From: Pirellulales bacterium
GTDB taxonomy: Bacteria; Planctomycetota; Planctomycetia; Pirellulales; JACPPG01
Length of the DNA: 64,000 nt
Direction: 5' to 3'
Assembly (NCBI GenBank): GCA_035546535.1
Contig: DASZWQ010000098.1
Coordinates: 3,964-67,963 of the forward strand
Part shown: positions 9,701 to 40,058 of the stretch, in pieces
Numbering within the stretch: position 1 is the stretch's first letter
How the letters are laid out: every line of letters starts with the position of its first letter
Position numbers and translations under genes: made by a program
Notes under the pieces: model-generated
Told to the model about the DNA's origin: nothing
What the model saw: the letters and a program-made list of their open reading frames with translations, nothing else
Databases searched by the model: none

Positions 9701-10355
9701 GCGCAACTACTGCACGCACAACACGGTCGAAGCCGCGGCGCTCTCGCATCGCTCCGAGGCCGTATTGGGTGGCATTCTTTCCTCGATCAAGTTCTCGCAG
9801 ACCAAGAACCCGCGGCCCGGGTCCACGGCCACCAAGTACGCCATGTTCGACCTGGAAGATACGGCCGGCGTGATGCGCACCATCATCTGGCCCGAGGAAT
9901 TCGCCAACTACGGCGAATTCATCAAAGCCGACGCGATCCTGGCGCTGCGCGGCGTGATCGACAAACGGCCCGGAAGTGAAGAAGCGAACTTCATTGTCAA
10001 CGAGGTCATGCACCTGCCGGACCTGGCCAGTCGTTACACGCGCGGCGTGCTGATTCGCGTCGACGAAGAGCCGCACGGTGTGCGTGGGCTCGAGCAACTC
10101 TACGAAATCCTGCGCGGTTACCCCGGTAGTTGCGAATTGCAATTGGCCCTACGACTGGCTGACGGCAGCCAGGTGACCTGTGCCTGCGACGGGATGCGCG
10201 TCGAGCTGAACACCGAGATGCGCGGCCGGGTCGAGGAACTGCTGGGCCAGGGAAGTCTCCGCCCGGTGGCCTCGCGCCCCAAGCCCACGGGCAACGGGCA
10301 GAATGGCAACGGTCACAACGGCTACTCACGGCAGCCCGCCGGCGCGCGCCGCTAG
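6765..10355 (+). CDS. dnaE: DNA polymerase III alpha subunit
   Basis: 1196 aa. PHP domain start FVHLHCHSHYSLLDGAS, then the conserved ..YGFNKSHSTAYALIAYMTAYLKAHF.. and OB-fold tail. Start moved to ATG 6765. The 926-aa antisense ORF is a shadow. Confidence 0.95.
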   Translation: MTSGRFVHLHCHSHYSLLDGASPIDGLIAKAKNQGMNALALTDHGNLYGALEFYEAAKAEGINPIIGYEAYIAPGSRFQKDVDANQEASYHLTLLAQNRTGFQNLVKLASSAFLEGFYRKPRIDKELLAAHSEGLICLSGCVSGELSRSLLRGSAAEPDWNEIEKIITWFSQTFGDRYFLEIQNNGLEIQRMALEGTVRVAQRMGLPLVATSDAHYVNREDAEAQDVLLCINTGRFRTDVNRMRMEGNEFFLRGPEEMYQAFPGLEDAVARSQEIADSVSIDLELGKRHFPTFDVPTEKTSTEYLRELCLTGLRERYANQPDFLADGVLAPVVLDRLERELDVIDKLGFPNYFLIVWDFVRFARERGIPATARGSGVGSLVAFALHLSHVCPLKYDLLFERFLDISRREAPDIDIDFCKDRRSEVIGYVKERYGAENVAQIGTFGTLAARAAIRDVGRALGLTVARVDSIVALVPETLGISIEEALEASEDLRRAYDNDGEVRELLDLAMKIEGLARNVGTHAAAVVIADRPLNEYVPLQRVQGKEEVITQWAMGDVERAGLLKMDFLGLRNLTILSKAVDLIRATTGREVDPYKFPLDDPETFKLLCRGETKGIFQLESGGIRDLLQRMKPDHFRDIIATNALYRPGPLEGGMVDDYIQVKHRRKQAEYKHPVMKDILEETHGVMVYQEQVMRILNRLGGIELSNAYSCIKAISKKKLPMIAKFREQFVNGAVEQGLKEREAEELFGMIEKFAGYGFNKSHSTAYALIAYMTAYLKAHFSVEFMAALLSGDIQGRNFKKKDSLVEHLEDCRRMNITVVSPDVNRCGGDFGVENGQILFGLAAIKGCGMQAADAIYAERRARGPFRDLFDFCERLDPAHVNRGAIESLVKAGAFDFTGARRSQNMAAIERALQSGASALADRRSGQKGLFGDEDEPSAPAAASLPDLPEWPERERLSAEKEVLGFYLSSHPLDEHAETLRNYCTHNTVEAAALSHRSEAVLGGILSSIKFSQTKNPRPGSTATKYAMFDLEDTAGVMRTIIWPEEFANYGEFIKADAILALRGVIDKRPGSEEANFIVNEVMHLPDLASRYTRGVLIRVDEEPHGVRGLEQLYEILRGYPGSCELQLALRLADGSQVTCACDGMRVELNTEMRGRVEELLGQGSLRPVASRPKPTGNGQNGNGHNGYSRQPAGARR

Positions 10356-11998: not shown

Positions 11999-13858
11999 TT
12001 ACGATTTCCCCAGCGGCAGTACGACCTTGCTCAACAGGATCGGGACCTTCGTCGGCTTGAGCGGGTTATCTCCCACGGCCACGGTCTTTGGATGGGCGAT
12101 TCCCAATACCAGCACGCGGTCCCCTTCGGCCAGGCCCGCGATTGGCTCGTCGAGCGGCAGGAAGTATTCTTCCTCCGAGCCGACCAGAGTGATCAATAGG
12201 GCCGCGTCCTGGTCATCGCCGTGAAAGAACTTCTTCACGCGACCGAACACGAAGGCGCCGCCGTAAGGCGTTCGATCCTTGCCAGCGTGCGCGTTGATGG
12301 GGCGCATCTGATCGTCGTCTTGCCAGTGAATCTTGCGTAATTCGGCCACGACCTTGTCGGCCTCGCGAATCACGGCCTGCTGCTCTTCCATCGGCATCGG
12401 GATTTGCACCCCGGGATGCGCCTGTACGTACTTCACCGCCGTGATTGCCTTGGCCAATTCATCCAGCGCTACCCAATCTTCGGCCTCGCGCGGACGCCAG
12501 TTCTTGGTCGCCAGCTCGGACGACAGCGTCTTGATGCGTTCCGAGGCCATCGACAACGCTGCGAATTGCGGCTGCGATGGCTCGGGCATGCTCCGCCGCC
12601 GCAGCTTCAGCGGCACCACGGCCGTCTCTTGATGACGCGCAAGCTCGTGCAGATGCCGGCTATGGATGGCATAGCCCAGCCCCAGCTTCTGATTAACCCA
12701 CGAATTGACGCCGATCACCTCGCCGCGGGCGTTGATCAATGGTCCACCGCTATTGCCGGGCGCGATCTTGGCATCGTGTTGAATCCACAGGTCGTCATCG
12801 CTGCCTTCGAGCGTCGACTCGAGCCATTGTCGCGTGTCGGCGGGCAGTTGCGTGGTGCGCAGCACGCGCCCGACGATACCTCCTGTGGTCGTGAACTCGT
12901 TATCCTGCGGGTGGCCGATGGCATACACCTGGGCCGCGTCGCGCGGTCCGTCCCCGTAATTCAGCTCGAGCGCCTTTACATTCGCGGGCACGCCATTGAT
13001 CTTGATGATCGCCAGGTCACTGCTGTGGTCGACGGCCATGTATCCTTCGACGCCAAATCGCGTGCCGTCGTTGAAAACGACATCGGCTTTGGCCGCGTCG
13101 GAAACGACGTGATAATTCGTCGCCACCAGGCCGCTGGCGTCGATGACGAAGCCCGAGCCCAGCCCGCGGCGATTGTTGAAGTTATCGGAAGTTTCGATTT
13201 TCACGATGCCATGCTTGACGTACTCGACCACGTCTTCCAAGGTGGCGCCGGCATCAGGCTTAGCGGTTTCGACAACCTCTTGCTGCGGGTGGGGATTGAA
13301 CGGGGCTGGATTAAAATCCGCCGCGACACCGGCAGGCTGCTCATGAGGAGCAGGCTGCGAGCTCGCGGTTGGCACGTTCGCCGGCCGCAACATCAGGAAC
13401 AGTCCAGCGGCCACGAGCGCGGTGGTTGCGCCGCCCAAGGTGATCCACACCCAGGCAGGCGGCGCCGCGCGGCGCGTGCGCCGAACGCGAGGAACCGGCG
13501 CGGTGATATCGACGGCGACGACCGGTGCCGCGGTCGATTCCGGCACCGAGACGTGAAATAGTTCGTGTGCGGATGTTGGATCGGCGGTAGTTGGCGCCGC
13601 GGACGGGATCGACCCGCACGAGTGACGATCGGGTATCGGAGGCGGCACAGGCACGGGGCGCCGAGTTGGCGCGCTGGGAGACGAGCCCGCCGACGGAATC
13701 GTTGCCGCGTTGCGAGTCCCCGCATTCTCGGCGCGTCCCGCTAGCGGAGGCACGCGCAGCGTCGTGCCGCACTTCGGACACTTTCCCTGTCGCCCGGCGA
13801 GCTCGTCGCGGACTTCTAAAGTCGCCTGGCAGGACTGACAAGTGAGGCGAATCGCCAT
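11999..13858 (-). CDS. Trypsin-like (S1C/HtrA-type) serine protease with N-terminal zinc ribbon and TM segment
   Basis: N-terminal CQSC..(17 aa)..CPKC zinc ribbon and TM segment WVWITLGGATTALVAAGLFLM. Catalytic region ..ATNYHVV.., ..DLAIIKI.., ..GNSGGPLINARGEVIGVNSW. Start moved to ATG 13858. Confidence 0.8.
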   Translation of the reverse strand: MAIRLTCQSCQATLEVRDELAGRQGKCPKCGTTLRVPPLAGRAENAGTRNAATIPSAGSSPSAPTRRPVPVPPPIPDRHSCGSIPSAAPTTADPTSAHELFHVSVPESTAAPVVAVDITAPVPRVRRTRRAAPPAWVWITLGGATTALVAAGLFLMLRPANVPTASSQPAPHEQPAGVAADFNPAPFNPHPQQEVVETAKPDAGATLEDVVEYVKHGIVKIETSDNFNNRRGLGSGFVIDASGLVATNYHVVSDAAKADVVFNDGTRFGVEGYMAVDHSSDLAIIKINGVPANVKALELNYGDGPRDAAQVYAIGHPQDNEFTTTGGIVGRVLRTTQLPADTRQWLESTLEGSDDDLWIQHDAKIAPGNSGGPLINARGEVIGVNSWVNQKLGLGYAIHSRHLHELARHQETAVVPLKLRRRSMPEPSQPQFAALSMASERIKTLSSELATKNWRPREAEDWVALDELAKAITAVKYVQAHPGVQIPMPMEEQQAVIREADKVVAELRKIHWQDDDQMRPINAHAGKDRTPYGGAFVFGRVKKFFHGDDQDAALLITLVGSEEEYFLPLDEPIAGLAEGDRVLVLGIAHPKTVAVGDNPLKPTKVPILLSKVVLPLGKS

Positions 13859-14184
13859 CAGAAACCCTTCTGCTCTTCCAGCTCTCCAGCCTAACAAGTC
13901 CTACGCTCGCCAGCCATTCGCGGGCCGCAAATTACGAAATCATGAGAATTGGCACCCGAAATCGACAAGCTTTATCGTTTGCTGGCGAAAAGCATGGGCC
14001 AGGGACGCTGGCGTCGCCCCCCTCAAAAACGCCCGGCATGGTGGTACAATGCAGCGGTTTGTATCGGAAAGCTCGTACCGAGCCTGTGCCCCCGCGAATC
14101 TTTGGGGGCGATCGGACGGTACAGCAGAGATGAGGAGGGCCCGTGCCCTCGGTGTCAGGCAATTGACCCGGCTCTCGGCCCGCA

Positions 14185-15153
14185 ATGCATCTCGTTGATA
14201 TTCATAACGTCAGCCGCAGTTACGGGCACGTGCGGGCGCTCCGGGACGTGAGTTTCACGCTCGAGCCGGGTATCGTCGGCCTGGTCGGCAACAACGGGGC
14301 CGGAAAATCGACACTGCTCAAGGTCTTGCTCGGCCTGCTCACGCCCGATGCCGGCCACGGGACCATTCTCGGCTTCGATATTTGCCACGCCACCAGTGCT
14401 CTGCGCGGACAAGTCGGCTACATGCCCGAGGCCGCCGCGACGGTGCCGGTGCTGAAGGGGGTGGAATTCGTCACGCTGGCCGGCGACCTGTACGGGATGC
14501 CGCATCGCGACGCCCGGCGCCGCGCCCACGAAGTCTTGAATTACGTCGGCCTGGGTGAGCTGCGTTACCGCCGGCTGGAGGAGTATTCGACCGGCAACGT
14601 GCAGCGGTTGAAGCTGGCCGCGGCATTGGTACACGATCCGCGGCTGTTGTTGTTGGACGAACCGACCAATGGCCTCGACCCTGAGGGGCGCGAGGCAATG
14701 CTGGAATTGATCGAGGATTTGATCCGCGAGACGGGCAAGAGCGTCATTCTTTGCACGCACCTGCTGCCCGACGTCGAGCGGCTGTGCGAACAGATCGTGG
14801 TTCTGCATCGCGGCACCGTGATCCGCGCCGGCACTATGGCGGCGCTGCGACTTGGCGAATCGAATCGCTTCGATATTCGGTGGCGGGGCGAAGGAGCCGG
14901 ATTTCTTGTCGCGCTGCGCGACGCCGGTGTTCAGGTCATGGCCGGAGCCCATGCCGATCATGCCGTGGTACACGCTCCGGCCAACTGGCACAACTCGCAA
15001 TTCTTTGTGCTGGCGCGCCGGCACGACGTCGTGCTCACGGAATTGCGCGCCGACGAAGAGGATCTCGAGCGGCTATTCTTCCGCGTCACCGACGACACCA
15101 TGCCCGCGACGCCGGTCGCGGTACCGCCGCAGGAGCCGAGCAGTGGGCATTGA
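14185..15153 (+). CDS. ABC transporter ATP-binding protein
   Basis: Walker A GLVGNNGAGKSTLL, signature YSTGNVQRLKLA, Walker B LLLLDEPTNGLD. Confidence 0.9.
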   Translation: MHLVDIHNVSRSYGHVRALRDVSFTLEPGIVGLVGNNGAGKSTLLKVLLGLLTPDAGHGTILGFDICHATSALRGQVGYMPEAAATVPVLKGVEFVTLAGDLYGMPHRDARRRAHEVLNYVGLGELRYRRLEEYSTGNVQRLKLAAALVHDPRLLLLDEPTNGLDPEGREAMLELIEDLIRETGKSVILCTHLLPDVERLCEQIVVLHRGTVIRAGTMAALRLGESNRFDIRWRGEGAGFLVALRDAGVQVMAGAHADHAVVHAPANWHNSQFFVLARRHDVVLTELRADEEDLERLFFRVTDDTMPATPVAVPPQEPSSGH

Positions 15154-25038: not shown

Positions 25039-25080
25039 GCGCCTGTAGCTCAGGGGATAGAGCAACGGTTTCCTAAACCG
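25039..25080 (+). repeat. attL: truncated copy of the 5' 42 nt of tRNA-Arg(CCT)
   Basis: GCGCCTGTAGCTCAGGGGATAGAGCAACGGTTTCCTAAACCG is identical to 39986..40027. The sequence diverges immediately after, so there is no T-arm or 3' acceptor strand. Confidence 0.85.
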
Positions 25081-28365: not shown

Positions 28366-28605
28366 TTAGCTGGCATCGGCCAGCGGAAGCATCGGCAATA
28401 TGTCGGGATTCTCGGCGGTCGAATCCTCGCGCGTGACGCGAACAATCAGGCACACGTCTTCCGCGTCGATAAACTGAAGTGACTCGCCGTTGGACAAGGC
28501 AACTTGTACATCGGCATCGTCGGGGATTTCTACGTCGTGCCGGTCAAGCAATGCTACCAAGTCGTTTCCGTCGAAAATCAGGCTGTCGTTTCGGACTCGC
28601 ATCAT
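28366..28605 (-). CDS. Small, strongly acidic hypothetical protein (79 aa)
   Basis: GGAGG lies 7 nt upstream of ATG 28605 (MMRVRNDSLIFDGNDL..). By hand count, 13 Asp + 5 Glu versus 5 Arg and 0 Lys. Confidence 0.55.
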   Translation of the reverse strand: MMRVRNDSLIFDGNDLVALLDRHDVEIPDDADVQVALSNGESLQFIDAEDVCLIVRVTREDSTAENPDILPMLPLADAS

Positions 28606-28750
28606 GGGTGCAACCTCCAAAGTTGGGCAAAAATGTGGGCCACGCGGCCCCTCTGCTCAACGATGCGCTGTCCGTGGACAATGTGAAGTGCAGCCGGTTC
28701 TGCTAGTTTTGCTCGCGGCAACGAACGTGCCGGGAATGATGGCAAACGTA

Positions 28751-28784: not shown

Positions 28785-28916
28785 TAAAACGCTCCATCGA
28801 TACGTATAGGCGGAAAATCGCATTCTTTAGCCGGCCGCGCGGCGCGCAACAAAATCGGCACAACCGATTAGCCGGTCGTGCCGAAAAGATTTTTATGCCG
28901 ATTCCGCGAGCCGTAC

Positions 28917-29261
28917 CTAAAGCAACGCTTGCGCGGCCATACTCGCGAATCGTCGCGCGGCGTCACGGTCCTGCGCTGCCATCTGCCGTCGCTGCTGCCA
29001 GTACGGGACGCCGCGCGGCCGGTGACAATCCACGATGACGAGTCCGGCCGGGATGCGTTTTTCGCGGCATGCGGCATTTAGGACGCCAAGCACGGATTCT
29101 GGCTTGGCGTCTTGGCCCGTCACGATGTAATCAATTGATTGCTCGCCCCGATGGCCGCTGGCTTGCGAAAACCGCCAGCGCTTGCCCAGCAGTTCCGTTG
29201 CCCAAGCCTCTAAGTCTTCGACGCGGACTCGCGTCACGCTCTCACGCACGAAATCAATCAC
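28917..29261 (-). CDS. Hypothetical protein (114 aa)
   Basis: GTG 29261 is preceded by GGGGAG. The upstream part of track ORF 28917..29363 overlaps the terminator and the preceding gene. Confidence 0.55.
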   Translation of the reverse strand: MIDFVRESVTRVRVEDLEAWATELLGKRWRFSQASGHRGEQSIDYIVTGQDAKPESVLGVLNAACREKRIPAGLVIVDCHRPRGVPYWQQRRQMAAQDRDAARRFASMAAQALL

Positions 29262-29275
29262 TGTTAAGACTCCCC

Positions 29276-29316
29276 AAAAAAGAACACCGTAGCCCGATTC
29301 GGTCAACGGGCTACGG
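29276..29316 (-). terminator. Rho-independent terminator overlapping the stop codon of 29303..29833
   Basis: 10-bp stem CCGTAGCCCG (29287..29296) / CGGGCTACGG (29307..29316). On the minus strand it is followed by TGTTCTTTTTT. Confidence 0.65.
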
Positions 29317-29833
29317 CATTCCAATCGATGTACATCTCGTAGCGGGCGTCCACTACGGAGCACTTGATCTTTTCAACTTTGTCGGCCTGGCCGAAGTTGA
29401 AGACGCGGACCGCGCTATTGTCCTTGCCCGACTTGGGCAAGAGACAACCAAGGAAGATTTGCGAATCGGGATCGTCGGGGTTGTAGTCGGTCAGTTCCTG
29501 GCCGTAGTTCCACACCGGGATCGGCGAATCCATCGCCTCGTTGAACAGGCCCTCGTAGGTGAGGATGTCGAGTCCGTTCTTGTTCGGTGTGTCGTAGCGG
29601 CTTAAGATCAACACGTTGGCGTCGATCAGGATTTGGTAGTAGTTCGCGCTACATTCCTTGGTAAACGGTCCCGTGATGCGAATCTCGACCCGATCGGTCG
29701 CTTGCTGGAAAGCTGTGGTGCGATCGTCGAGATGATCGACCAGGACGGCTAATCCGGCTTGCGTGGCGACGGTCTTCAGATGATGGGCGACCGATGAGAA
29801 GGTCCATCGTGCCCAGTTGGGATTGGCGGGCAT
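29303..29833 (-). CDS. Hypothetical structural-module protein (176 aa)
   Basis: TAATG 1-nt overlap with the upstream gene, and followed by its own terminator. No family recognised. Confidence 0.65.
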   Translation of the reverse strand: MPANPNWARWTFSSVAHHLKTVATQAGLAVLVDHLDDRTTAFQQATDRVEIRITGPFTKECSANYYQILIDANVLILSRYDTPNKNGLDILTYEGLFNEAMDSPIPVWNYGQELTDYNPDDPDSQIFLGCLLPKSGKDNSAVRVFNFGQADKVEKIKCSVVDARYEMYIDWNAVAR

Positions 29834-30109: not shown

Positions 30110-33100
30110 CTAGATCAGCGACGTGCCGCGCCGCGCTTCGCGGCGCAAGAGTTGTTGAATCTCGCGGGCCGTGGCCTGCGGATTTGCGGATTCAGTGATA
30201 TTGATTCCGCCGTTGAAGGTGACACTGCTCACCGGCCCACCTTCCGCCCGGTAAACGGGGCGATCAGCATTCATGGCGACCAGTTGCGAATAGAACTTTT
30301 GCGTACTCGCGGCGTTCATCACGAATTCGCCCGGTGAGAGCATGGCCGGAATGGTGTCCGTGCCACGCGCTTGACCGCCGGCAGAGAAGTAGCGGCCAAT
30401 GACGCCACCATAGGCTTCGTTTTCCGTCTCGGCCGCAACCTTGGCCGCCACACTGACGGTATACTGCTGCGAGTCCAAATAGCCCTGAATCTGGCTGCTC
30501 ATCCCGGACAGCGCTTGGCCTGACGCTTCCAGGTCGTTGATCCGCGTTCCTGTAACGGCTTGTTGCAAGCGCTGCTGAAGCTTGTCGAAGCTGAGCACCG
30601 TCGAAATATCAAAGTGACTACTAGGCGAAAATAAAACGCTGTTGAGGTGTGCCAAGTCTTCCTGGGCCGCAGCGCGATTCTTGGCGATTTGCGCTTCAGG
30701 CAGGCGGTTTCCCTGGCTATCAAATTCTCTCAAGTTATCCAGAAAATGCTTGCTCGTCTTGGCGATATCATCGACTCTCGCTTGTTCGGCCGCGGCAGCC
30801 GCGTTTGCCTGCAATGCGATTTGTGCTTTGAGGGCCGCTTGTGCGCGCGTAGCGTCCGTCTGACGACGCAAGACGCTTTCAATCTCGCGCTCTCCCTGTA
30901 GTTGCGCTGTGCGGTTGCCGGATGACTGGGCAGCCGTAGCCGCTTGCTGCGCGAACGCTTGGGCGCGCTGGAATTCCCGGCTAGCTAGCTCAATCTGCTG
31001 CGGCGTTTGAGCACGCGACAGCAGCCGCGATGCCTCCGAGGATAGACTGTCGGCGCGGTTGCGGTCACGCTGCGACTGTTGCAACTGGCTGAATCGCTTG
31101 TTGGCGTAATTGAAGCGCTGATCGCTTAACTGTTGGGCAAGATCGTTGGCGTGCTGTTGATCCTTGATTGAGTCTTGCGCCGAAGTCTGGGAGAGCCGTT
31201 TCAGGTCCTGGGCGTATCTCTGGCGCGCTTGAAGGATGCGCTCCAAGGTATCGTGATCGTCGCGGACTAAATCCGCGTTGGCTTGCTTTGCCTTTTCGGC
31301 AGCGCTCACGGATGTTTGCAGTGCTTCGGTACCAATGCCGGCCGGGTCGAATTTGACCGTAGCGGCTGTCTCGCGAATATCCTTAAGCTTCTTCAAGCCT
31401 TCGTCGTACTGGTTTAATTCCGGCTGAAAGGTCGCGCGCGTGACGAAATTTGATGCTTGAGTGTCATTGACTAACTTGGCATGCTCCGCGACCAAATCGT
31501 TAAAGTCTTTCTCAGTGATTTTCGCTTGATGCGATACGGCCGCATAGTGAGCAACAAACGCATCAAAGTCGGATCGCAATTGGTCAGCGAACGGCGCGCC
31601 GGATCGCGCGCCGCGGTTCGCATCGCTCTGGGTAACAATTTGCTCGGCTTCTGCACGGAGATTCGCCAGCCGTTGCGTCTGCACTTCAATCTCATTCGCG
31701 CCGCTCTCGTTCAATTTGTCGAGATTCTGTTTGTTCAAGGCTTCCAAGGCCTTTGATTGCGCGGATTGGTCGAGAAGATTGGCATTGATGAATTGGCCAA
31801 TCGAAACGCCAAGTCCTTTGGCGACCGGAACGGCCGCTAGTCCCGCCAGTGCAGTAGAAAAGCCGACACCGGCAAGCCGCGCTGCGCCTAACTGCGTCGT
31901 TATGAGTACAAGACTGGCACCAAGCCCTAAGAGAGCCGGGCCGGCAGCGTCGATGACAGACGTGGCATTCTCCACACCGCCAGCCCAACGGCTGAATTCG
32001 GCTGCGGCTTTGACGGCCGCACCGCCCACACCGTCCGTGAGTGCATTGCTCAGCTTGTTAAGATCGCTCTCGACGCGCTCTGCGTCCGTGGAAATGCGCC
32101 GTAAGTAGACGTTGGCGTGATCGGACGGGGTGAAATTGGAAATCTTTTGCAGATGCTCTTGGTACGTGTCAAAGCCTTGTTGTGCCTCGCCGAGTACGCC
32201 TTTGATGGCGCGTACATTCGTGAACAGTCTCGCGATGCTTTCGGCCGAGCCATCCGTTGTACCGATCAAGGCACGCAAACCGCCGACAAAGCCGAGTGCT
32301 TTGACGAGCGCTTGGGCGTTTTCAAAGCCCAACAAGTGCATTGCGTCGGCGGTCGCCTTTGTCGGCTTCAATAGGGCAGTAATTGCCGCGTTCTGTTGAG
32401 TCGCGGCCTCTTCCGGGCTGACACCACGTTGCGTCAACGTGCTGAAGCCAGCTAACACCTCTTCAGGCTTGATTCCGAGCAGATTCGCGCCGGGAGCAAC
32501 CTTAGGCAAATTCGCTGCCAGTTCAGAGCCGACGATCTTGCCTAGCTCGACGGTCTTGAAGAACTCCGCAGCGCGCTTCTCCGCATTGGGCGCGGATTCA
32601 CCAAACGCATTTAGCGCAGTGCTGAGCAAGTTGACCGTATCGACACCTCCGGCAACGGTCGTCTTCGCGAGCTTGAACGATGCTTCCAGGATTTGCAGTT
32701 GGTCGCTGGCGTTCGTAAAACCGTTTGACAGTACGTCGTATTTCGCCTTGGCCACGTCGAGTAGCGGTATGTTGTAGGCGTCACTGAGAGAGCGAACATC
32801 TTTGGCTAATGACTCGATGGACCGGTCGCCTGCGATCGTCTGGATATTCGAGACAGCTTTTTGAAAATCGAGCGATGAATGGAGAGTCTCGCTAATCTCA
32901 TTGCGGACCGTGGACATACCACGCACGATGGCTTGTGTGAATACCACACGGCTAAGCAGCCCGAGGCTTACCGTCAACTTATCGACATTCACGGTTGACG
33001 CGGCTGCACCCTGTCCCAAGTCCGTGCGCAGTGCATTGCCAACTTGCTTGGCTGCGGCGCTTGCATTCGAGCCAGCACTGTTGAAGAGGTTTATTGATCC

Positions 33101-33211
33101 TGCAACGGACGTGAATCGGGTTTGGAGATTCGTCAGCGACGAATCTAGCTGCTTACACGCTTCAAGCGCCTGCGAAACGTCAAAGCCAAGCTGTTGGTTT
33201 AGGTCGGCCAT
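30110..33211 (-). CDS. Phage tail tape-measure-like protein
   Basis: 1033 aa. The N-terminal third resembles the TP901-type TMP core (..AKYDVLSNGF..LEASFKLAKTTVAGGVDTVNLLSTALNAFG..GVSPEEAATQQNAAITALLKP..). There is a Gly/Ala-rich hydrophobic segment and a long Ala/Gln coiled coil, with C-terminal ..TDTIPAMLSPGEFVMNA.. Confidence 0.8.
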   Translation of the reverse strand: MADLNQQLGFDVSQALEACKQLDSSLTNLQTRFTSVAGSINLFNSAGSNASAAAKQVGNALRTDLGQGAAASTVNVDKLTVSLGLLSRVVFTQAIVRGMSTVRNEISETLHSSLDFQKAVSNIQTIAGDRSIESLAKDVRSLSDAYNIPLLDVAKAKYDVLSNGFTNASDQLQILEASFKLAKTTVAGGVDTVNLLSTALNAFGESAPNAEKRAAEFFKTVELGKIVGSELAANLPKVAPGANLLGIKPEEVLAGFSTLTQRGVSPEEAATQQNAAITALLKPTKATADAMHLLGFENAQALVKALGFVGGLRALIGTTDGSAESIARLFTNVRAIKGVLGEAQQGFDTYQEHLQKISNFTPSDHANVYLRRISTDAERVESDLNKLSNALTDGVGGAAVKAAAEFSRWAGGVENATSVIDAAGPALLGLGASLVLITTQLGAARLAGVGFSTALAGLAAVPVAKGLGVSIGQFINANLLDQSAQSKALEALNKQNLDKLNESGANEIEVQTQRLANLRAEAEQIVTQSDANRGARSGAPFADQLRSDFDAFVAHYAAVSHQAKITEKDFNDLVAEHAKLVNDTQASNFVTRATFQPELNQYDEGLKKLKDIRETAATVKFDPAGIGTEALQTSVSAAEKAKQANADLVRDDHDTLERILQARQRYAQDLKRLSQTSAQDSIKDQQHANDLAQQLSDQRFNYANKRFSQLQQSQRDRNRADSLSSEASRLLSRAQTPQQIELASREFQRAQAFAQQAATAAQSSGNRTAQLQGEREIESVLRRQTDATRAQAALKAQIALQANAAAAAEQARVDDIAKTSKHFLDNLREFDSQGNRLPEAQIAKNRAAAQEDLAHLNSVLFSPSSHFDISTVLSFDKLQQRLQQAVTGTRINDLEASGQALSGMSSQIQGYLDSQQYTVSVAAKVAAETENEAYGGVIGRYFSAGGQARGTDTIPAMLSPGEFVMNAASTQKFYSQLVAMNADRPVYRAEGGPVSSVTFNGGINITESANPQATAREIQQLLRREARRGTSLI

Positions 33212-35739: not shown

Positions 35740-36183
35740 TCAGGAAAAATATCGCTTTTTTATCGCATTCAGCCGCCGCGTCACGGTTGCCGGATCGATT
35801 CCTAGTTCAGCCGCGGCCTCCTTGCGGCTGTATCCCGCGGCCCGCAGTCGCACGATTTCGGCGTCTAGTGGGTCACACGATGCGAGTATGTCGTCTTCCA
35901 GTTCCGCCGCGGCGTCAGGATCGTAGATGGCTCGCTCGACTGCCCCTTGATCCGATTGCGGTTCGCGGGACTCGGCGCGGATATGCCTCTGCATAGCAGT
36001 ACAGATGATGCCGTACAGGGTTTTCTCATCGATGGGGCCAGCTTCGATGTAGGCAAGCTGGCCGACGCCCCTCAGTTCGTTGTACCAGCGGTCCGGTTGT
36101 AAACGCTTACGCTTTATTGTCGCTTTCGCGGCGCGCTCGACTACAGCCGGGAAATGTGTCTCCCATTCGTCCTTAAATTTCAT
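35740..36183 (-). CDS. Sigma-70 region-4-like HTH protein (possible element-encoded sigma/late regulator or small terminase-like DNA binder)
   Basis: C-terminal ..LDAEIVRLRAAGYSRKEAAAELGIDPATVTRRLNAIKKRYF looks like an ECF sigma region 4 / LuxR-type HTH. Confidence 0.5.
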   Translation of the reverse strand: MKFKDEWETHFPAVVERAAKATIKRKRLQPDRWYNELRGVGQLAYIEAGPIDEKTLYGIICTAMQRHIRAESREPQSDQGAVERAIYDPDAAAELEDDILASCDPLDAEIVRLRAAGYSRKEAAAELGIDPATVTRRLNAIKKRYFS

Positions 36184-36304
36184 GTTTTGCCGCGGCGGTC
36201 CATGTTAAAACGCCTACGAGCCCCATAGAAAAAAGCATGGTGCAATCACACCGGGGGTGTTGCCGGACGCTGCTATACGCAATCCTAGGGCGTTTGGGAC
36301 GGGA

Positions 36305-36679
36305 TTAGGCAGTGACCGGCCTTAGAAGACCGTCCATGACTGTCCACGCGGGCCGCGTCGGGGTGACCCGGTGCCAGGACAGATTACCGATGTACCGGCG
36401 GTTGCCGGTGTGCCGGCCGTACGGGAAGCGTGCTGGAATAGCTTTCGCGACCCGCGTGCGGGTCCACTCGCGGCGCTCGCTTTTGACTAGCGACCGCAGA
36501 AAGCGCGCATAGAAGTCCGTGAAAAGGATTTTTGCGCCGGCTACTTCGTAGCATTCGGCAGCGATGAACTGCTCAACGATGGGACTAGTCTTGGCATCTG
36601 CCAGTTTTTGGATCGCCCGTGCGATTTCGTCGCCGGTCAGCGTGACTGGGCCCGCCACAGTAACAACATGTAAATTCAC
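36305..36679 (-). CDS. Hypothetical protein (124 aa)
   Basis: GTG 36679 is preceded by AGGAG. This is the first gene downstream of promoter-like motif copy A. Confidence 0.55.
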   Translation of the reverse strand: MNLHVVTVAGPVTLTGDEIARAIQKLADAKTSPIVEQFIAAECYEVAGAKILFTDFYARFLRSLVKSERREWTRTRVAKAIPARFPYGRHTGNRRYIGNLSWHRVTPTRPAWTVMDGLLRPVTA

Positions 36680-36710
36680 CCTGATGCTCCTGTCTCAAGT
36701 TGTAATTCGC

Positions 36711-36723
36711 CACACACACACAC
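36711..36723. repeat. (CA)6 dinucleotide repeat
   Basis: CACACACACACAC lies between motif copy A and the GTG start at 36679. Confidence 0.9.
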
Positions 36724-36724
36724 T

Positions 36725-36756
36725 TGTTAGGTGCAGCCCAGACCGATTTGGCACAC
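36725..36756 (-). promoter_or_regulatory. Bipartite promoter-like motif, copy A
   Basis: The minus strand reads GTGTGCCAAATCGGTCTGGGCTGCACCTAACA. It is upstream of 36305..36679 and forms an inverted repeat with copy B. Confidence 0.4.
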
Positions 36757-36785
36757 TCGATTCTGGAATTTTTTTTTGCGTGCAG

Positions 36786-36817
36786 GTGTGCCAGATTGCT
36801 CCGGGCTGCACCTAACA
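36786..36817 (+). promoter_or_regulatory. Bipartite promoter-like motif, copy B
   Basis: GTGTGCCAGATTGCTCCGGGCTGCACCTAACA. A T9 run (36769..36777) lies 8 nt upstream. It faces the repeat-dense non-coding region. Confidence 0.4.
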
Positions 36818-37148
36818 GGCATGGACTTAGACAGACTGAGACAGGACTACGTTGTAGTAGGGTCGGCGGTAAAATGTGCGTACGGGCTGCTCCGTGTGCA
36901 TGGCGACACACTGTACGCAATCGCTGAGGGGCACCCCCGCGTGCGGAATCAGCTTCGCGCGCTGCCGCGCGCGGTCCAGGGGCCGGGGGAATGCGTCATA
37001 CTCCCCGCCGAGCAGTTTCAGGCCGCGGCCGGGATCATGCGTCCTGTCTGCCAGGACCGACGCAGGAAGGGGCGACACGCCCCGCGACCGCCCCCGTCAC
37101 GGGATGCCAGCGGGCGGTTTCGCTCGCCGCGGCGATGAGTTAGTTTTC

Positions 37149-37168
37149 GAGTTACTTTCGGGGTAACT
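37149..37168. repeat. Palindromic site AGTTAC-N7-GTAACT
   Basis: GAGTTACTTTCGGGGTAACT at the left edge of the AT-rich core. Confidence 0.7.
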
Positions 37169-37343
37169 TCTTTTTCCCTTACAGACATCAATATATTTTT
37201 CTCTATAGGGTAGGGTAGAAGTTAATAAAAAAAAGCAACTATCGGTGGAAATCGAGCTATTGCGTTCGCGTAAATCCTTGATATATAAGGACTTAGCATC
37301 GTTTTTTCCGCCGAGTTACTTTTAGAGCCGCCGGAGCCCGGTC

Positions 37344-37364
37344 GAGTTACTCGAAAAGTAACTC
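37344..37364. repeat. Palindromic site GAGTTAC-N7-GTAACTC
   Basis: GAGTTACTCGAAAAGTAACTC at the right edge of the AT-rich core. An extra half-site GAGTTACT lies at 37313..37320. Confidence 0.75.
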
Positions 37365-37445
37365 TACCCCTCTGACGGGTTATGCGATAGACCCCTGATT
37401 TATGGGTCATCTTGAGGCCCAGGCACGTCCGCCGCGGCGAAACGC

Positions 37446-37462
37446 CTAGTTTCTGGGCACGC
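37446..37462 (+). repeat. 17-nt direct repeat, copy 1
   Basis: CTAGTTTCTGGGCACGC compared with CTAGTTTCTAGGCACGC at 37545..37561 (1 mismatch, 99 nt apart). Confidence 0.75.
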
Positions 37463-37467
37463 ACCTC

Positions 37468-37508
37468 GGCCCTCCGCCGGCCCTCCGCCGACCCTCCGCC
37501 GGCCCTGG
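37468..37508 (+). repeat. 11-nt tandem repeat (about 3.6 copies)
   Basis: GGCCCTCCGCC GGCCCTCCGCC GACCCTCCGCC GGCCCTGG. Confidence 0.85.
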
Positions 37509-37544
37509 ATTTCCCGGATGAAACACGTCCCCGGGGGCCGATCG

Positions 37545-37561
37545 CTAGTTTCTAGGCACGC
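37545..37561 (+). repeat. 17-nt direct repeat, copy 2
   Basis: CTAGTTTCTAGGCACGC. Confidence 0.75.
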
Positions 37562-37778
37562 CCCAGACGAAAGAGCAACGGCCGCGCAACCCGCAAAATC
37601 GCCGCCACCCCACCGAAGATTTGACCCTGCCCCGTCCCCAGGTCCGGCAACCCGCCAGACTCCGGCTACGCACACCGTTGCTCTATGCTCGTTTGGTGCC
37701 TGGATTCCTGGGGTCTGCGGGTCACTTTGTCCGGGACCTGTCCGCGTCGGCCGTGCATAGTGTACATGCGATCAGTAC

Positions 37779-37834
37779 CGGTTGTAACGATTATGACGGT
37801 TGTAGCGGTTGTGCCGGTTGTAGCGAGTTTGTGG
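37779..37834 (+). repeat. 9-nt iteron-like repeats CGGTTGTRN
   Basis: CGGTTGTAA (37779), then tandem CGGTTGTAG CGGTTGTGC CGGTTGTAG (37797..37823), then a degenerate CGAGTTTGTGG. Confidence 0.8.
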
Positions 37835-37980
37835 GGCCGATAAGCACAACCGCGCATACACGCTCCCATAACCGCGCGTTGGGGGCACTCCTACCACCCC
37901 CAGGCACCAGCGATCCGGGCATCTATATCGCGGTGGCCGGATCACGGCGCAGTCTCGGCTTTTTTTTTTTTTGAAATTTG

Positions 37981-38012
37981 GTGTGCCAGTTTGCGAGTTG
38001 CTGCACCTAACA
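37981..38012 (+). promoter_or_regulatory. Bipartite promoter-like motif, copy C
   Basis: GTGTGCCAGTTTGCGAGTTGCTGCACCTAACA. A T13 run (37960..37972) lies 8 nt upstream. An 8-bp hairpin 38021..38041 follows. Upstream of 38072..38488. Confidence 0.4.
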
Positions 38013-38071
38013 AGCATGGGCCGCAGGCACGTCGCCTGCGGACAGATGGAACCAAAGATGAGGTGCAATCA

Positions 38072-38488
38072 ATGGCCGCTACCAACATCAGCAAGCTACT
38101 GCGAATTGAGAATCGTGCAATCTTCGATGCCGTGAATGAGATTGTTTGCGACGTGCAATGCGACGGCATGTTTACAAACAAGCGTTATGACAGGATGTAC
38201 ATCCGGGAAGTCCTAGAGTACGGCCGATTGGTGAGCGAACAACTTTGCGAAGGCTTCCAAGGATTTGAGGCCGACCCGTGGCCAGGCGACAAGATGATGC
38301 TGCGGCAACCTAATAATCTCATCTACTTCTTTTGTGACGACGGCCAGTGGTACTCGGCTTTCAATGGGAAGTTTGACCGACTTCTTGAACCGATGCCCGC
38401 GCTGCCAATTGGCGATGCTGAATCGGCCATACTAGACAGTATCTATTACGGTGCCGATGACAGCAGCCGAAACGCATTGCTCGTTTAA
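38072..38488 (+). CDS. Hypothetical protein (138 aa)
   Basis: GAGGTG lies upstream of ATG 38072 (MAATNISKLLRIENRAIFD..). No family recognised. Confidence 0.55.
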   Translation: MAATNISKLLRIENRAIFDAVNEIVCDVQCDGMFTNKRYDRMYIREVLEYGRLVSEQLCEGFQGFEADPWPGDKMMLRQPNNLIYFFCDDGQWYSAFNGKFDRLLEPMPALPIGDAESAILDSIYYGADDSSRNALLV

Positions 38489-38635
38489 CAAAATAGCGGA
38501 CCCCAGTTGATCCAGAGTCCAAAGCCAACAACCCAGAGCCAACAACGCCTAGGCCGATTAGGTTCGGCAACGGCCCAAGCGCCAGCGGTACAAGTGCTAA
38601 GCGATCAGCGATCAACTGGGGTCTTTTCAATTCAT

Positions 38636-38881
38636 ATGACAGCAGCAACAAGAATCGCAATCGCCCTGGAGCGCATCGCCGATCATCTCGATAGGGCGAA
38701 GCCGCCGGCACCTTTGACCGCTGAACAAGTCGCCGAACGGCTAGGCGTCAGCGTCGATAAGGTCTACCAGATGGCCCGCAAAAAAGAATTGCGGTCCACG
38801 AAACACGGACGCGCGGTCCGGTTCGCGGTTGCCGATATCGAGCGCTATCTAGCGGATCAACGGCCACGCCTCATTGCGTAG
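38636..38881 (+). CDS. xis: Excisionase-family HTH DNA-binding protein
   Basis: LTAEQVAERLGVSVDKVYQMARKKELRSTKHGRAVRFAVADIERYL matches the excisionase/MerR-like HTH pattern. Start moved to ATG 38636. Confidence 0.75.
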   Translation: MTAATRIAIALERIADHLDRAKPPAPLTAEQVAERLGVSVDKVYQMARKKELRSTKHGRAVRFAVADIERYLADQRPRLIA

Positions 38882-39908
38882 CCTTGTCGAGTTCGTCACG
38901 CAAGAATTGGTGCTGTCTCTCTAGATGGCCGTACACTCTGCGGACCATTGTCCCATCGACGTGGCCCATTAGTACGCCAGTGGTGTCGGCAGTAAGACCT
39001 CTCCGTAGCGCACGCTGCGCAAAACGATGGCGAACAGCGTAGGCGCACAGCCCGTTGATTTTCAGTTTGTTGCGTAGCTTTGAGAATCGCTGCGCAATTG
39101 CTCCGGCCGTGTACTCTTGACCCTTGCGACCACGGAACAGCGGTCCGGTCGGATGCTTCTTCGACAGTCGGTCGATAATCTCGGCAGCAGCGGAATTCAG
39201 CCGAATCACTCGGCGAACCTTTTGACCCTTGCTGTTCTCGCGCTCCAGGATCAAATCTTGATCCTCTCTGTGTGCAGCGCTGACACACCGCACCTCTTGC
39301 GGCCGGCAGCCGGTCGCATCCAAGAACTTCAGCACGTCCACAAAGTCAGCTTGCGCAGCGTCCAGGACGCGCTGCCAGTCAGCATCGGAAATATCAACTT
39401 CGCGTGGTATGACTTGCGGGCGCTCAATGCTGACCACGGGATTGATTGCCAGACCCTCGACCAGTTGTTGCTTGATTGCCCAGTTGAACACGCGGGCTGC
39501 GGCAGCAGCACAGCCATTCTTGTACGTTGATCCGCCCGGAAGGTTGTCTATCCAGCTTTGGATATGATGGCCCCGCGCTTCGTGGACCTTTACACTTCCG
39601 CAGTGAGCGACGAACGGGGTCAGTCGCTCCAAGTAGGTCTGGTGAGTTCTAGGCTTCTTCTTCTTCTTTGCCCAGTCGAGGAATTGTTGGCAGAGTTCCT
39701 GTATTGTGGTGGCGGAATTGACTGGCTGCGCACCTGCCATCCGTTTGTGATACTCACGCTCGGCGGCTTCCTTGCTACTTTTGCCATCGTTGTCGAGGTA
39801 TTTTCCGTTGGCATCCTTCTGGGTCTTGGCCAGCCGGACGGGTTTGCCACCCGGACCAACGTCCGCATACCATGCGTGGTGAGACTTCTTGTAGTACGGC
39901 AGTTTCAT
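38871..39908 (-). CDS. int: Tyrosine-type site-specific integrase
   Basis: 345 aa. N-terminal SAM-like region and C-terminal catalytic residues in ..YAVRHRFAQRAL.. and ..LMGHVDGTMVRRVYGHL. Adjacent to the tRNA. Confidence 0.9.
   Translation of the reverse strand: MKLPYYKKSHHAWYADVGPGGKPVRLAKTQKDANGKYLDNDGKSSKEAAEREYHKRMAGAQPVNSATTIQELCQQFLDWAKKKKKPRTHQTYLERLTPFVAHCGSVKVHEARGHHIQSWIDNLPGGSTYKNGCAAAAARVFNWAIKQQLVEGLAINPVVSIERPQVIPREVDISDADWQRVLDAAQADFVDVLKFLDATGCRPQEVRCVSAAHREDQDLILERENSKGQKVRRVIRLNSAAAEIIDRLSKKHPTGPLFRGRKGQEYTAGAIAQRFSKLRNKLKINGLCAYAVRHRFAQRALRRGLTADTTGVLMGHVDGTMVRRVYGHLERQHQFLRDELDKATQ

Positions 39909-39985: not shown

Positions 39986-40058
<73 letters not shown>

Follow-up and report, generated by a model that had tools for sequence, protein, structure and literature searches.

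In the satellite phage P4, the alpha primase-helicase binds the octamer repeats of ori and crr through its C-terminal winged helix, the origin-binding domain, and a small protein, Cnr, regulates copy number. In staphylococcal pathogenicity islands (SaPIs), the C-terminal winged helix of Rep recognizes penta- or hexanucleotide iterons that flank an AT-rich center; each side carries two or more of them, oriented in opposite directions (PMC9371898). The origin of the Vibrio cholerae satellite PLE is a non-coding region with four repeat types; PLE encodes the initiator (RepA) only, and its replication machinery comes from the helper phage (PMC7145576). In iteron-type theta origins and in the lambda ori/O system, iterons are located beside an AT-rich unwinding element, and the initiators are winged-helix DNA-binding proteins that have no helicase activity and recruit host functions (PMC4980987, PMC4081077). 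For planctomycetes, almost nothing is known about the replication of mobile elements and phages.

We analyzed a gene-poor stretch of about 1.15 kb (positions 36818-37980) in a 64-kb window, the whole piece of planctomycete DNA under study. Our tentative reading, to which we give a probability of roughly 45%, is that the region is a SaPI/P4-like replication-origin and control module, active or relic, that would be recognized by p124, the 124-aa product of a neighboring gene.

Anatomy of the region within a phage-derived island

The region belongs to a 15-kb phage-derived integrative island that is bounded by att sites, with a 42-nt exact repeat at 25039 and 39986 marking its ends. The island contains a tRNA-Arg and integrase, excisionase-like, sigma-like and tape-measure genes, and is devoid of genes for capsid, portal, terminase and helicase. 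Repeated 8- to 12-mers occur in the region above the level of Markov shuffles, and its repeat density ranks first or joint first when compared to 122 other windows of 1163 nt. We recovered all repeat families named in the preliminary description at the positions given below, and the stretch singled out there as the most AT-rich indeed corresponds to the lowest-GC 140-nt window of the 64 kb.

The left border is formed by a divergent pair of a 32-nt promoter-like motif (36725-36817), with copy A on the minus strand (36725-36756), copy B on the plus strand (36786-36817) and a T9 run between them (36769-36777). The pair folds as a hairpin (z = -8.7). At the right border (37960-38012), a T13 run (37960-37972) is followed by the plus-strand motif copy C (37980-38012), which heads the operon of p138 and the excisionase-like gene. 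The motif copies were not found in three public collections (genome, viral and metagenome), in which the pattern GTGTGCCA-N12-CTGCACCTAAC gave chance matches only (Roseburia; one within a coding region). No DNA homolog of the whole region was found in 60 relatives, where all matches to 36700-38020 were 39 nt or shorter. Two mobile-element interpretations were rejected: a multi-copy MITE, since there is neither a second genomic copy nor a target-site duplication, and an integron attC for the A/B inverted repeat, since the core/inverse-core order is reversed and the third, lone copy heads an operon.

The AT-rich core (37168-37307), a candidate DNA-unwinding element, has a GC content of 33.6%, compared to 45% for the next-lowest 140-nt window in the 64 kb, and contains one IHF-like site (37271, minus strand). 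It is enclosed by palindrome 1, GAGTTACTTTCGGGGTAACT (37149-37168), and palindrome 2, GAGTTACTCGAAAAGTAACTC (37344-37364), with a half-site GAGTTACT at 37313. Both palindromes are inner parts of a longer imperfect inverted pair made up of a left arm, GAGTTAGTTTTCGAGTTACTTTCG (37137-37160, plus strand), and a right arm (37343-37365). The arms are about 85% complementary, and CGAGTTACT is present in three exact copies. In or just beside the left arm are AGTTAG at 37138, AGTTAC at 37150 and the inverted GTAACT at 37163-37168, while the right-hand set (37313-37365) comprises AGTTAC at 37314 and 37345 and the inverted GTAACT at 37358. Altogether, five AGTTAC/GTAACT hexamers and one AGTTAG fall within 241 nt, where 0.025 are expected (P about 1e-10), and six hexamers were not reached in any of 20000 shuffles. 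This anatomy and its statistical significance are direct observations.

Several unrelated repeats are found to the right of the core. Two plus-strand 17-mers, CTAGTTTCTRGGCACGC, i.e. CTAGTTTCT(G/A)GGCACGC, start at 37446 and 37545 (span 37446-37561) and bracket 3.6 tandem copies of the 11-mer CGGCCCTCCGC (37467-37508 by TRF, 93% matches). Further on, the inverted pair AGAGCAACGG (37572) and CCGTTGCTCT (37676) encloses a C-rich stretch, its members being about 95 nt apart (span 37572-37685); the right copy is part of a 13-mer that matches the att core exactly. A tRNA/att remnant at 37600-37686 was considered and rejected, since the similarity ends with the 13-mer and the local alignment score is within the shuffle range. 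The 9-mers form two arrays, five to six CGGTTGTRN copies on the plus strand (37779-37834) and three CGRTTRYRN-type copies on the minus strand (37584-37610), the latter missed by the preliminary description. The plus-strand array is the only part of the region with recognizable relatives in other planctomycete genomes. It is trailed by the minus-strand inverted half-copies ACAACCGCGC (37846-37855) and ATAACCGCGC (37868-37877), as read from the sequence, and inverted copies similarly trail the 9-mer arrays of loci G260, G022 and G087. A further loose 9-mer copy is located at 28849-28866.

A stand-alone winged-helix protein and its relatives

The gene to the left of the region (36305-36679, minus strand) encodes p124, a stand-alone winged-helix protein and the candidate binder of the repeats. 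p124 aligns with the last ~90 residues of 907/908-aa DUF5906 (TIGR01613 P4-family) primase-helicases with E-values of 1e-14 to 1e-17, and its full-length planctomycetal relatives match the P4-family primase C-terminal model TIGR01613. The AF2 model of p124 has a pLDDT of 88, and its best Foldseek matches, which are weak (E >= 0.003), are winged-helix domains together with C-terminal parts of viral primases and helicases. Judged from its sequence, p124 is a stand-alone homolog of the winged-helix domain with which planctomycetal P4-type (DUF5906, SF3) primase-helicases end. The top structural matches did not include the solved origin-binding domains of P4 or SaPI, and neither sequence nor fold searches recovered the solved P4 domain. 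Close relatives of p124 were absent from 5.8 billion proteins, and phage records gave no match.

The preliminary description had recognized no Rep, primase or helicase gene in the element. As to helicase and primase this holds: in tblastn searches with two full-length primase-helicases, nothing in the island matched besides the winged-helix part, and a Pfam scan of ten of the approximately twenty island ORFs revealed no helicase among those ten. The origin-recognition-type homolog p124, however, had been missed. A pseudogene of a lost primase-helicase or other gene was rejected as a source of the region, since tblastn with the two primase-helicases and with every ORF of 60 aa or more in seven related loci detected nothing in 36680-38075. 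The only other DUF5906 helicase of the genome is encoded on contig C94, in a second phage-like island with a tape-measure-like gene; this island was rejected as a helper, as it has no motifs in common with the region.

The layout of the region recurs beside relatives of p124 in other planctomycetes. In 12 of 15 loci, the lowest-GC 140-nt window is found within 1 kb of the p124-type gene (3.6 expected, P about 5e-6). These AT cores are usually flanked by element-specific inverted repeat sets, with short-repeat sets at five loci and single long inverted arms at three. For instance, the AT core is surrounded by AGTTAGTC arrays in G260, by GGGACTTTA and CCGGATTAAAGG inverted repeats in G040 and G087, respectively, and by GATAC / GTATC in G182. 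In G105, inverted arms of 27 to 52 nt are located just upstream of three primase-helicase copies. The element in G040 is related to the island, with which it has sigma, p124 and tape-measure homologs in common. Its non-coding module of about 1 kb contains the same ingredients and adjoins the p124 homolog, which is followed by a DUF5906 helicase; a GC-rich tandem in this module includes the 10-mer CGCCGGCCCT, also present in the 17-mer/11-mer segment of our region. In addition, CGGTTGTAG-type 9-mer arrays are about nine-fold enriched near p124-type loci (~28 per Mb, compared to ~3 per Mb in the island's own genome). Matches were found in six of 14 such loci (up to six clusters, four of them unambiguous), and the strict pattern gave seven non-self matches in 300 genomes versus one for the control. 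The homology and fold of p124 and the recurrence of the layout were, like the repeat anatomy, directly observed.

Candidate origin and rival readings

If the region is an origin, the module core (37137-37365) would present its six AGTTAC/AGTTAG hexamers as two inverted arms around an easily melting 140-bp core, and p124 dimers or oligomers would sit on either side of this core, bound to the hexamers, the 9-mer arrays or both. Since the island encodes neither helicase nor primase, unwinding and priming would be supplied by the host or by a co-infecting phage; alternatively, the module may be a relic, or serve for copy control or exclusion. What we infer in the origin reading is DNA binding, melting and replication. 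The origin proposed in the preliminary description gains from the p124 homology and from the AT-core/inverted-repeat layout recurring beside p124 relatives, and loses from the lack of a helicase, primase or other replication gene and of DnaA boxes. No DnaA box (TTATCCACA-like) with at most one mismatch is present in 36680-38075, and the single one with two mismatches compares to 1.8 expected. GATC clusters and CtrA sites are absent or not enriched.

The main rival is a transcriptional control region, i.e. a switch between the leftward operon (p124, sigma-like and structural genes) and the rightward operon (p138, excisionase-like gene) with no role in replication. Promoters would be located in the AT core, the AGTTAC arms would be operators for p124, acting as a repressor or regulator, or for another HTH protein, and the 9-mers would be host-factor sites. 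We consider such a switch possible but rather doubtful. The units on either side of the region do diverge, headed by copies of the same promoter-like motif, and promoters with operators would likewise show as AT-rich DNA that has inverted repeats and precedes a first gene. The missing helicase and DnaA boxes are compatible with a switch, as are the many stand-alone p124 homologs in islands that have no recognizable replicative helicase. Furthermore, other genomes have CGGTTGTAG 9-mer arrays located 60-330 nt upstream of genes for secreted proteins, with no p124 homolog within 8 kb, and these arrays fit a host transcription-factor site equally well. However, a distance of 65-230 bp separates the inverted arms on the two sides of the AT core, far more than in usual operators, and the same layout is found directly upstream of full-length SF3 primase-helicases. 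The p124 family itself is a replication-protein domain, and a consensus scan of 36000-38600 revealed no sigma-70-type promoter.

Three other explanations appear less probable than the switch. If the region were decayed or mosaic DNA left by a defective prophage, it would have no present function, its repeats being leftovers of an origin, recombination joints or lost genes. The island's lack of capsid, portal, terminase and helicase genes, its lack of close relatives in the collections searched, and the 13-mer identical to the att core would agree with decay, but we judge it improbable: no pseudogene remnant of related-element genes was detected in 36680-38075, the tRNA similarity stops at the 13-mer, the repeats show good preservation (the three exact CGAGTTACT copies, the closely matching 11-mers and the largely complementary arms), and the same modular layout recurs in related elements. 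Comparably improbable is a small orphan gene in 36827-37138. The non-coding character claimed in the preliminary description is firm for 37100-37980, whereas the left 200-300 nt (36830-37030) are weakly coding-like. Two ORFs, antisense to each other, have weak coding-like codon statistics, ORF83 (36827-37078, minus strand) and ORF106 (36821-37138, plus strand). Either ORF83 or a leaderless ORF106 could be the gene, with palindrome 1 and the T-rich tract as terminator. ORF83 has a codon log-likelihood of 0.27 per codon and GC1/2/3 values of 0.73/0.48/0.76, like the neighboring genes, but this score reaches only about the 95th percentile of non-coding alternative-frame ORFs. The start of ORF106 is 4 nt past motif copy B, and 10 nt separate its stop from the hairpin at 37149-37168. 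TTCTTTTTCC comes after this hairpin, which is nevertheless weak (-6.8 kcal/mol, z about 0). Neither a conserved open frame with homologs nor a public gene call was found: homologs of the orphan ORFs are absent from 300 genomes of the order and, for ORF83, from 5.8 billion proteins, and a HMMER search with ORF83 against 1.84 billion representatives gave two matches only, both to unrelated tandem-repeat proteins. The public protein collection includes gene calls for both flanking genes but for none of the nine candidate ORFs, and an orphan gene would account for at most about 25% of the region. We regard as very unlikely the long structured RNA, raised in the preliminary description as an alternative, or a long regulated leader running rightward from motif copy B. 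This copy is oriented into the region, two segments have significant predicted folding, 37140-37460 (z -4.2 to -4.6) and 37560-37700 (z -3.35), and an untranslated transcript would offer Rho a suitable loading segment at 37420-37660, which is C-rich and G-poor (C/G up to 2.1). Against this, every significant fold segment lies at a DNA-level inverted repeat, the remainder of the region folds no better than shuffles, and the signal is about equal on both strands where both were folded (37560-37700 was folded on the plus strand only). In the Rfam scan suggested in the preliminary description, the tRNA was the sole match in the window at the gathering threshold, and at E up to 5 Rfam 15, which includes large prophage-associated RNAs, gave only spurious miRNA-hairpin matches on the A/B inverted repeat. 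A covariation test had no homologs to align. Canonical terminators were rejected as well: the hairpin at 37149-37168 is too weak, and the T13 run does not qualify because it is 16 nt from the nearest hairpin rather than adjacent to a stem.

Should the region be only a transcriptional switch or a relic, it would represent an ordinary prophage control region. The origin reading, if true, would provide a testable pairing of a cis-module (AGTTAC arms, AT core and 9-mer arrays) with a protein (p124), and could help to develop replicating vectors for a phylum in which genetic tools are scarce. An origin-recognition domain would then also function separately from its helicase, which one would expect of a satellite relying on borrowed replication machinery. 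More generally, planctomycetes might harbor small integrative phage-derived elements in which the SF3 origin-recognition winged helix has been split off as a stand-alone protein acting on a composite non-coding module made of conserved CGGTTGTAG-type 9-mer arrays, element-specific inverted iterons and an AT core, with the helicase-less members, such as this island, being helper- or host-dependent satellite replicons or using the module against the replication of related phages. We offer this generalization as a speculation that is unlikely to hold in full; if true, it would add a PLE/P4-like lifestyle so far undescribed in the phylum.

Comparison with described origins

When compared to the iteron-type theta and lambda origins, the region has no DnaA boxes, its repeat sets are inverted around the AT core instead of forming one direct array beside it, and p124 is a single small winged-helix domain as opposed to a two-domain Rep. 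Like the PLE origin, for which the role is established, the region combines several unrelated repeat families in non-coding DNA, its own origin role being predicted. Unlike PLE, the island has no known helper, and p124 has no Pfam or NCBIfam match, hence none to the RepA_N family.

The resemblance to SaPI/PICI origins lies in the arrangement. Hexanucleotide repeats in opposite orientations are found on both sides of a central AT-rich region, three per side where at least two iterons of 5-6 nt are typical, and the module adjoins a gene for a winged-helix domain inside a small integrative phage-related island. In SaPI/PICI, however, this domain is the C-terminus of an SF3-type helicase, whereas that of the island is a separate 124-aa protein with no helicase or primase encoded. 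Instead of a SaPI-type rep gene with an SF3 helicase or a P4-family primase-helicase (TIGR01613/DUF5906), the island has the C-terminal domain homolog only. The core is located about 460 nt upstream of p124, in divergent arrangement, whereas in SaPIs the core directly follows rep. The island's host is a planctomycete, and neither its proteins nor its repeats resemble SaPI proteins or iterons in sequence.

Relative to P4, the island has no alpha-like primase-helicase, and its repeats are unrelated in sequence. Its two separate clusters of short repeats in both orientations recall ori and crr; the 9-mers at 37584-37610 and 37779-37834, with the inverted half-copies and the loose copy at 28849-28866, fit this two-site arrangement loosely. 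Cnr likewise offers a precedent for a small stand-alone protein that acts on or with an origin-binding domain.

The integrated element and its repeats

The window (C98:3964-67963 of a 6.36-Mb planctomycete assembly) includes a 15-kb integrated element in which the repeat-dense region (36818-37980) is located. A 42-nt repeat with identical copies at 25039-25080 and 39986-40027 bounds the element and corresponds to the 5' part of tRNA-Arg(CCT); across the element, GC content drops to ~0.55-0.59. The region divides a leftward unit, with the 124-aa gene p124 (36305-36679, minus), a sigma-70 region-4/ECF-like gene (35740-36183, minus) and structural genes including a 1033-aa tape-measure protein (30110-33211, minus), from a rightward unit comprising the orphan 138-aa gene p138 (38072-38488, plus) and an HTH_17 excisionase-like gene (38507-38881, plus). 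A tyrosine integrase follows at 38871-39908 (minus). Copies of a promoter-like 32-nt motif border the region at 36725-36756 (A, minus), 36786-36817 (B) and 37980-38012 (C). No helicase or primase was found in the island.

All repeats named in the preliminary description were recovered in place, and its AT-rich core (37168-37307) has a lower GC content (33.6%) than any other 140-nt window in the 64 kb (next lowest, 45%). For repeated 8- to 12-mers, which also exceed Markov shuffles, the region comes top, or joint top, against 122 further windows of the same length. Five AGTTAC/GTAACT hexamers and one AGTTAG are packed into 241 nt, against an expectation of 0.025. The two palindromes noted earlier belong to a longer inverted pair with imperfect arms (37137-37160 and 37343-37365), which encloses the core as a closed domain. 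A plus-strand array of a 9-mer (CGGTTGTRN) is followed by inverted half-copies, and a second array lies at 37584-37610 (minus). DnaA boxes are absent from the region and GATC is not enriched there. An inverted pair of AGAGCAACGG occupies 37572-37581 (plus) and 37673-37686 (minus, copy from 37676); the right copy lengthens to a 13-mer that matches the att core (D-arm to anticodon stem of tRNA-Arg) exactly, with no tRNA similarity at this site past the 13-mer. Four of the genome's 14 copies of this 10-mer fall in the island, and they could be extra integrase core-type sites. A loose two-unit copy of the 9-mer (CGGTTGTGCCGATTTTGT) is present at 28849-28866 (minus), in the gap between island genes 28366-28620 and 28917-29363.

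Coding potential and folding

Scored with a codon log-likelihood model that was trained on long ORFs of the genome, 37100-37980 shows no coding signal, and the earlier designation as non-coding holds there; at 36830-37030 it is weakened by a modest signal in ORF83 (minus, 0.27 per codon) or the antisense ORF106 (plus, 0.08). The ORF83 score reaches only the ~95th percentile of non-coding alternative-frame ORFs. Its homologues were found neither in 300 genomes of the order nor among 5.8 billion clustered proteins, and 1.84 billion HMMER-searched representatives gave two matches only, both unrelated tandem-repeat proteins. None of the region's nine candidate ORFs occurs in the public protein collection that holds both flanking genes. 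Given these absences and the weak codon signal, the region can in effect be regarded as non-coding; that a small orphan gene lies at the left edge, which would be compatible with the other readings, is improbable.

The proposed long structured RNA lost ground. Rfam matches to the region were absent even at E up to 5, and folding was better than in shuffles only at DNA-level inverted repeats (the A/B pair, 37140-37460 and 37560-37700). Where folding was computed for both strands, its strength was about equal on each, which points to DNA symmetry and not to RNA, and a long RNA starting from motif copy B appears very unlikely. The stretch 37420-37660 (plus) is C-rich and G-poor (C/G up to 2.1 in 80-nt windows) and, if an untranslated transcript from motif B ran through it, would look like a site for Rho loading.

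The p124 protein and recurrence of the layout

The p124 protein aligns with the final ~90 residues of 907/908-aa DUF5906 proteins from other planctomycetes, which match the P4-family primase C-terminal model TIGR01613. Its AlphaFold model, built with 12 homologues, is confident (pLDDT 88, pTM 0.72). The top PDB matches are winged-helix domains (Cdt1 C-terminal domain, RFX DNA-binding domain, Fur and ASFV PrimPol), and the great majority of those in a viral library are primases and helicases, among them a 'primase P4 C-terminal domain' protein, with every structural E-value at 0.003 or weaker.

We compared 15 loci of 9-20 kb with a p124-type domain, which is a separate protein in some and terminates a full-length primase-helicase in others. 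In 12 of them the lowest-GC 140-nt window lies less than 1 kb from the p124-type gene (3.6 expected, P ~5e-6). Inverted repeats surround the core in genomes G260 (AGTTAGTC arrays), G040 (GGGACTTTA), G087 (CCGGATTAAAGG) and G182 (GATAC/GTATC); in G105, inverted arms of 27 to 52 nt stand directly upstream of three primase-helicase copies. The 9-mer array is the sole part of the region with recognisable relatives elsewhere. Matches occur in 6 of 14 p124-type loci (up to six clusters, four unambiguous), clearly in G022, G260, G040 and G197 and more weakly in G087 and G105; clusters number ~28 per Mb at p124-type loci versus ~3 per Mb in the own genome. A strict 22-nt pattern of the 9-mer gave seven non-self matches in 300 genomes and one for the reversed control.

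The G040 element shares sigma-like, p124-like and tape-measure homologues with the island. Its ~1-kb non-coding module has the ingredients of the region: an array of 9-mers, a tandem that is GC-rich and has CGCCGGCCCT in common with the region, and inverted iterons, including an AGTTACC...GGTAAC pair, on both sides of a core with 34% GC. A DUF5906 helicase comes directly after the p124 homologue. This element (L031, G040:C39, 5822-13960) and L046 (G063:C69, 1-8516) are distant island relatives with these three genes in common. The former retains the DUF5906 helicase and has a large serine recombinase in place of the tyrosine integrase; in the latter, the sigma-like and p124-like genes diverge over only ~190 nt. 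In G260 (L029, contig C5), a small HNH-endonuclease-like ORF (CWPWKG...GYGEF...AHR...NPAHL; 7158-7565) separates the 9-mer array from the AGTTAGTC iterons; a tandem pair of p124-like paralogues lies downstream, as does a UvrD-like helicase. Another locus (L030, G212:C18, 1238-3569) clusters 13 tRNA genes ~5 kb from a stand-alone p124 homologue, which suggests a large phage or prophage.

Origin, switch or decay

The origin interpretation of the preliminary description is partly supported and becomes more specific: p124 homology and the recurrent layout favor an origin of iterons plus an AT core whose winged-helix recognition protein has been split off, and the absence of DnaA boxes counts against it. 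We tentatively favor a SaPI/P4-like origin and control module, at a probability of roughly 45%. The p124 protein would recognize the AGTTAC arms, the 9-mer arrays or both, and the 34% GC core would serve as the unwinding element; binding, melting and replication are all inferred. Alternatively, the module may serve copy control or interference, or may be a relic.

The main rival, in which the region is a transcriptional switch and the arms are operators for p124 or a different HTH protein, is possible but less likely. It would suit the placement between divergent units, the helicase-free island and the lack of DnaA boxes. Moreover, CGGTTGTAG arrays lie 60-330 nt upstream of secreted-protein genes with no p124 homologue within 8 kb, which suggests that a host factor may read them. 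However, the inverted arms are widely spaced, p124 descends from a replication protein, and the same layout precedes full-length helicases. Functionless decay would fit a region that has no DNA relative as a whole in 60 related genomes and whose motif pattern gave chance matches only in three public collections. Although the sequence itself is not conserved, the layout recurs at related loci, so that hypervariable junk does not describe the architecture, and decay is improbable. No trace of a decayed primase-helicase or of a related-element ORF was detectable.

In several planctomycete genomes, arrays of CGRTTRTAG-type 9-mers (core CGGTTGTAGCG) stand between genes: L047 8109-8135 (G040:C18), L048 7914-7933 (G018:C5), L061 ~1280-1330 (G262), L062 ~9840-9870 (G296), L060 ~9215-9245 (G242) and L059 ~8960-8980 (G258). 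Frequently the arrays are 60-330 nt upstream of a gene for a signal-peptide product. Neither a p124 homologue nor an integrase occurs within 8 kb of them, and they may represent an undescribed host cis-regulatory element.

A second phage-like island of the same genome (C94:1-17500, outside the window) has two integrase-like ORFs, a tape-measure-like ORF (7857-9314, minus) and an 822-aa DUF5906 helicase (12227-14695, minus). It shares no motifs with the region, and thus no helper was identified.

To our knowledge, no such split-off winged-helix origin module has been described in Planctomycetes. Two known systems resemble the proposed origin. SaPI Rep recognizes its origin through the C-terminal winged helix, which reads penta- or hexanucleotide iterons that flank a central AT-rich region on both sides in opposite orientations (PMC9371898); 37137-37365 has this layout, with short repeats in opposite orientations on both sides of the AT-rich core. 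The PLE satellite encodes only an initiator, and its origin lies in non-coding DNA that holds four types of repeat (PMC7145576). Since the island likewise lacks a helicase and primase, its replication would need host or helper functions, as in PLE.
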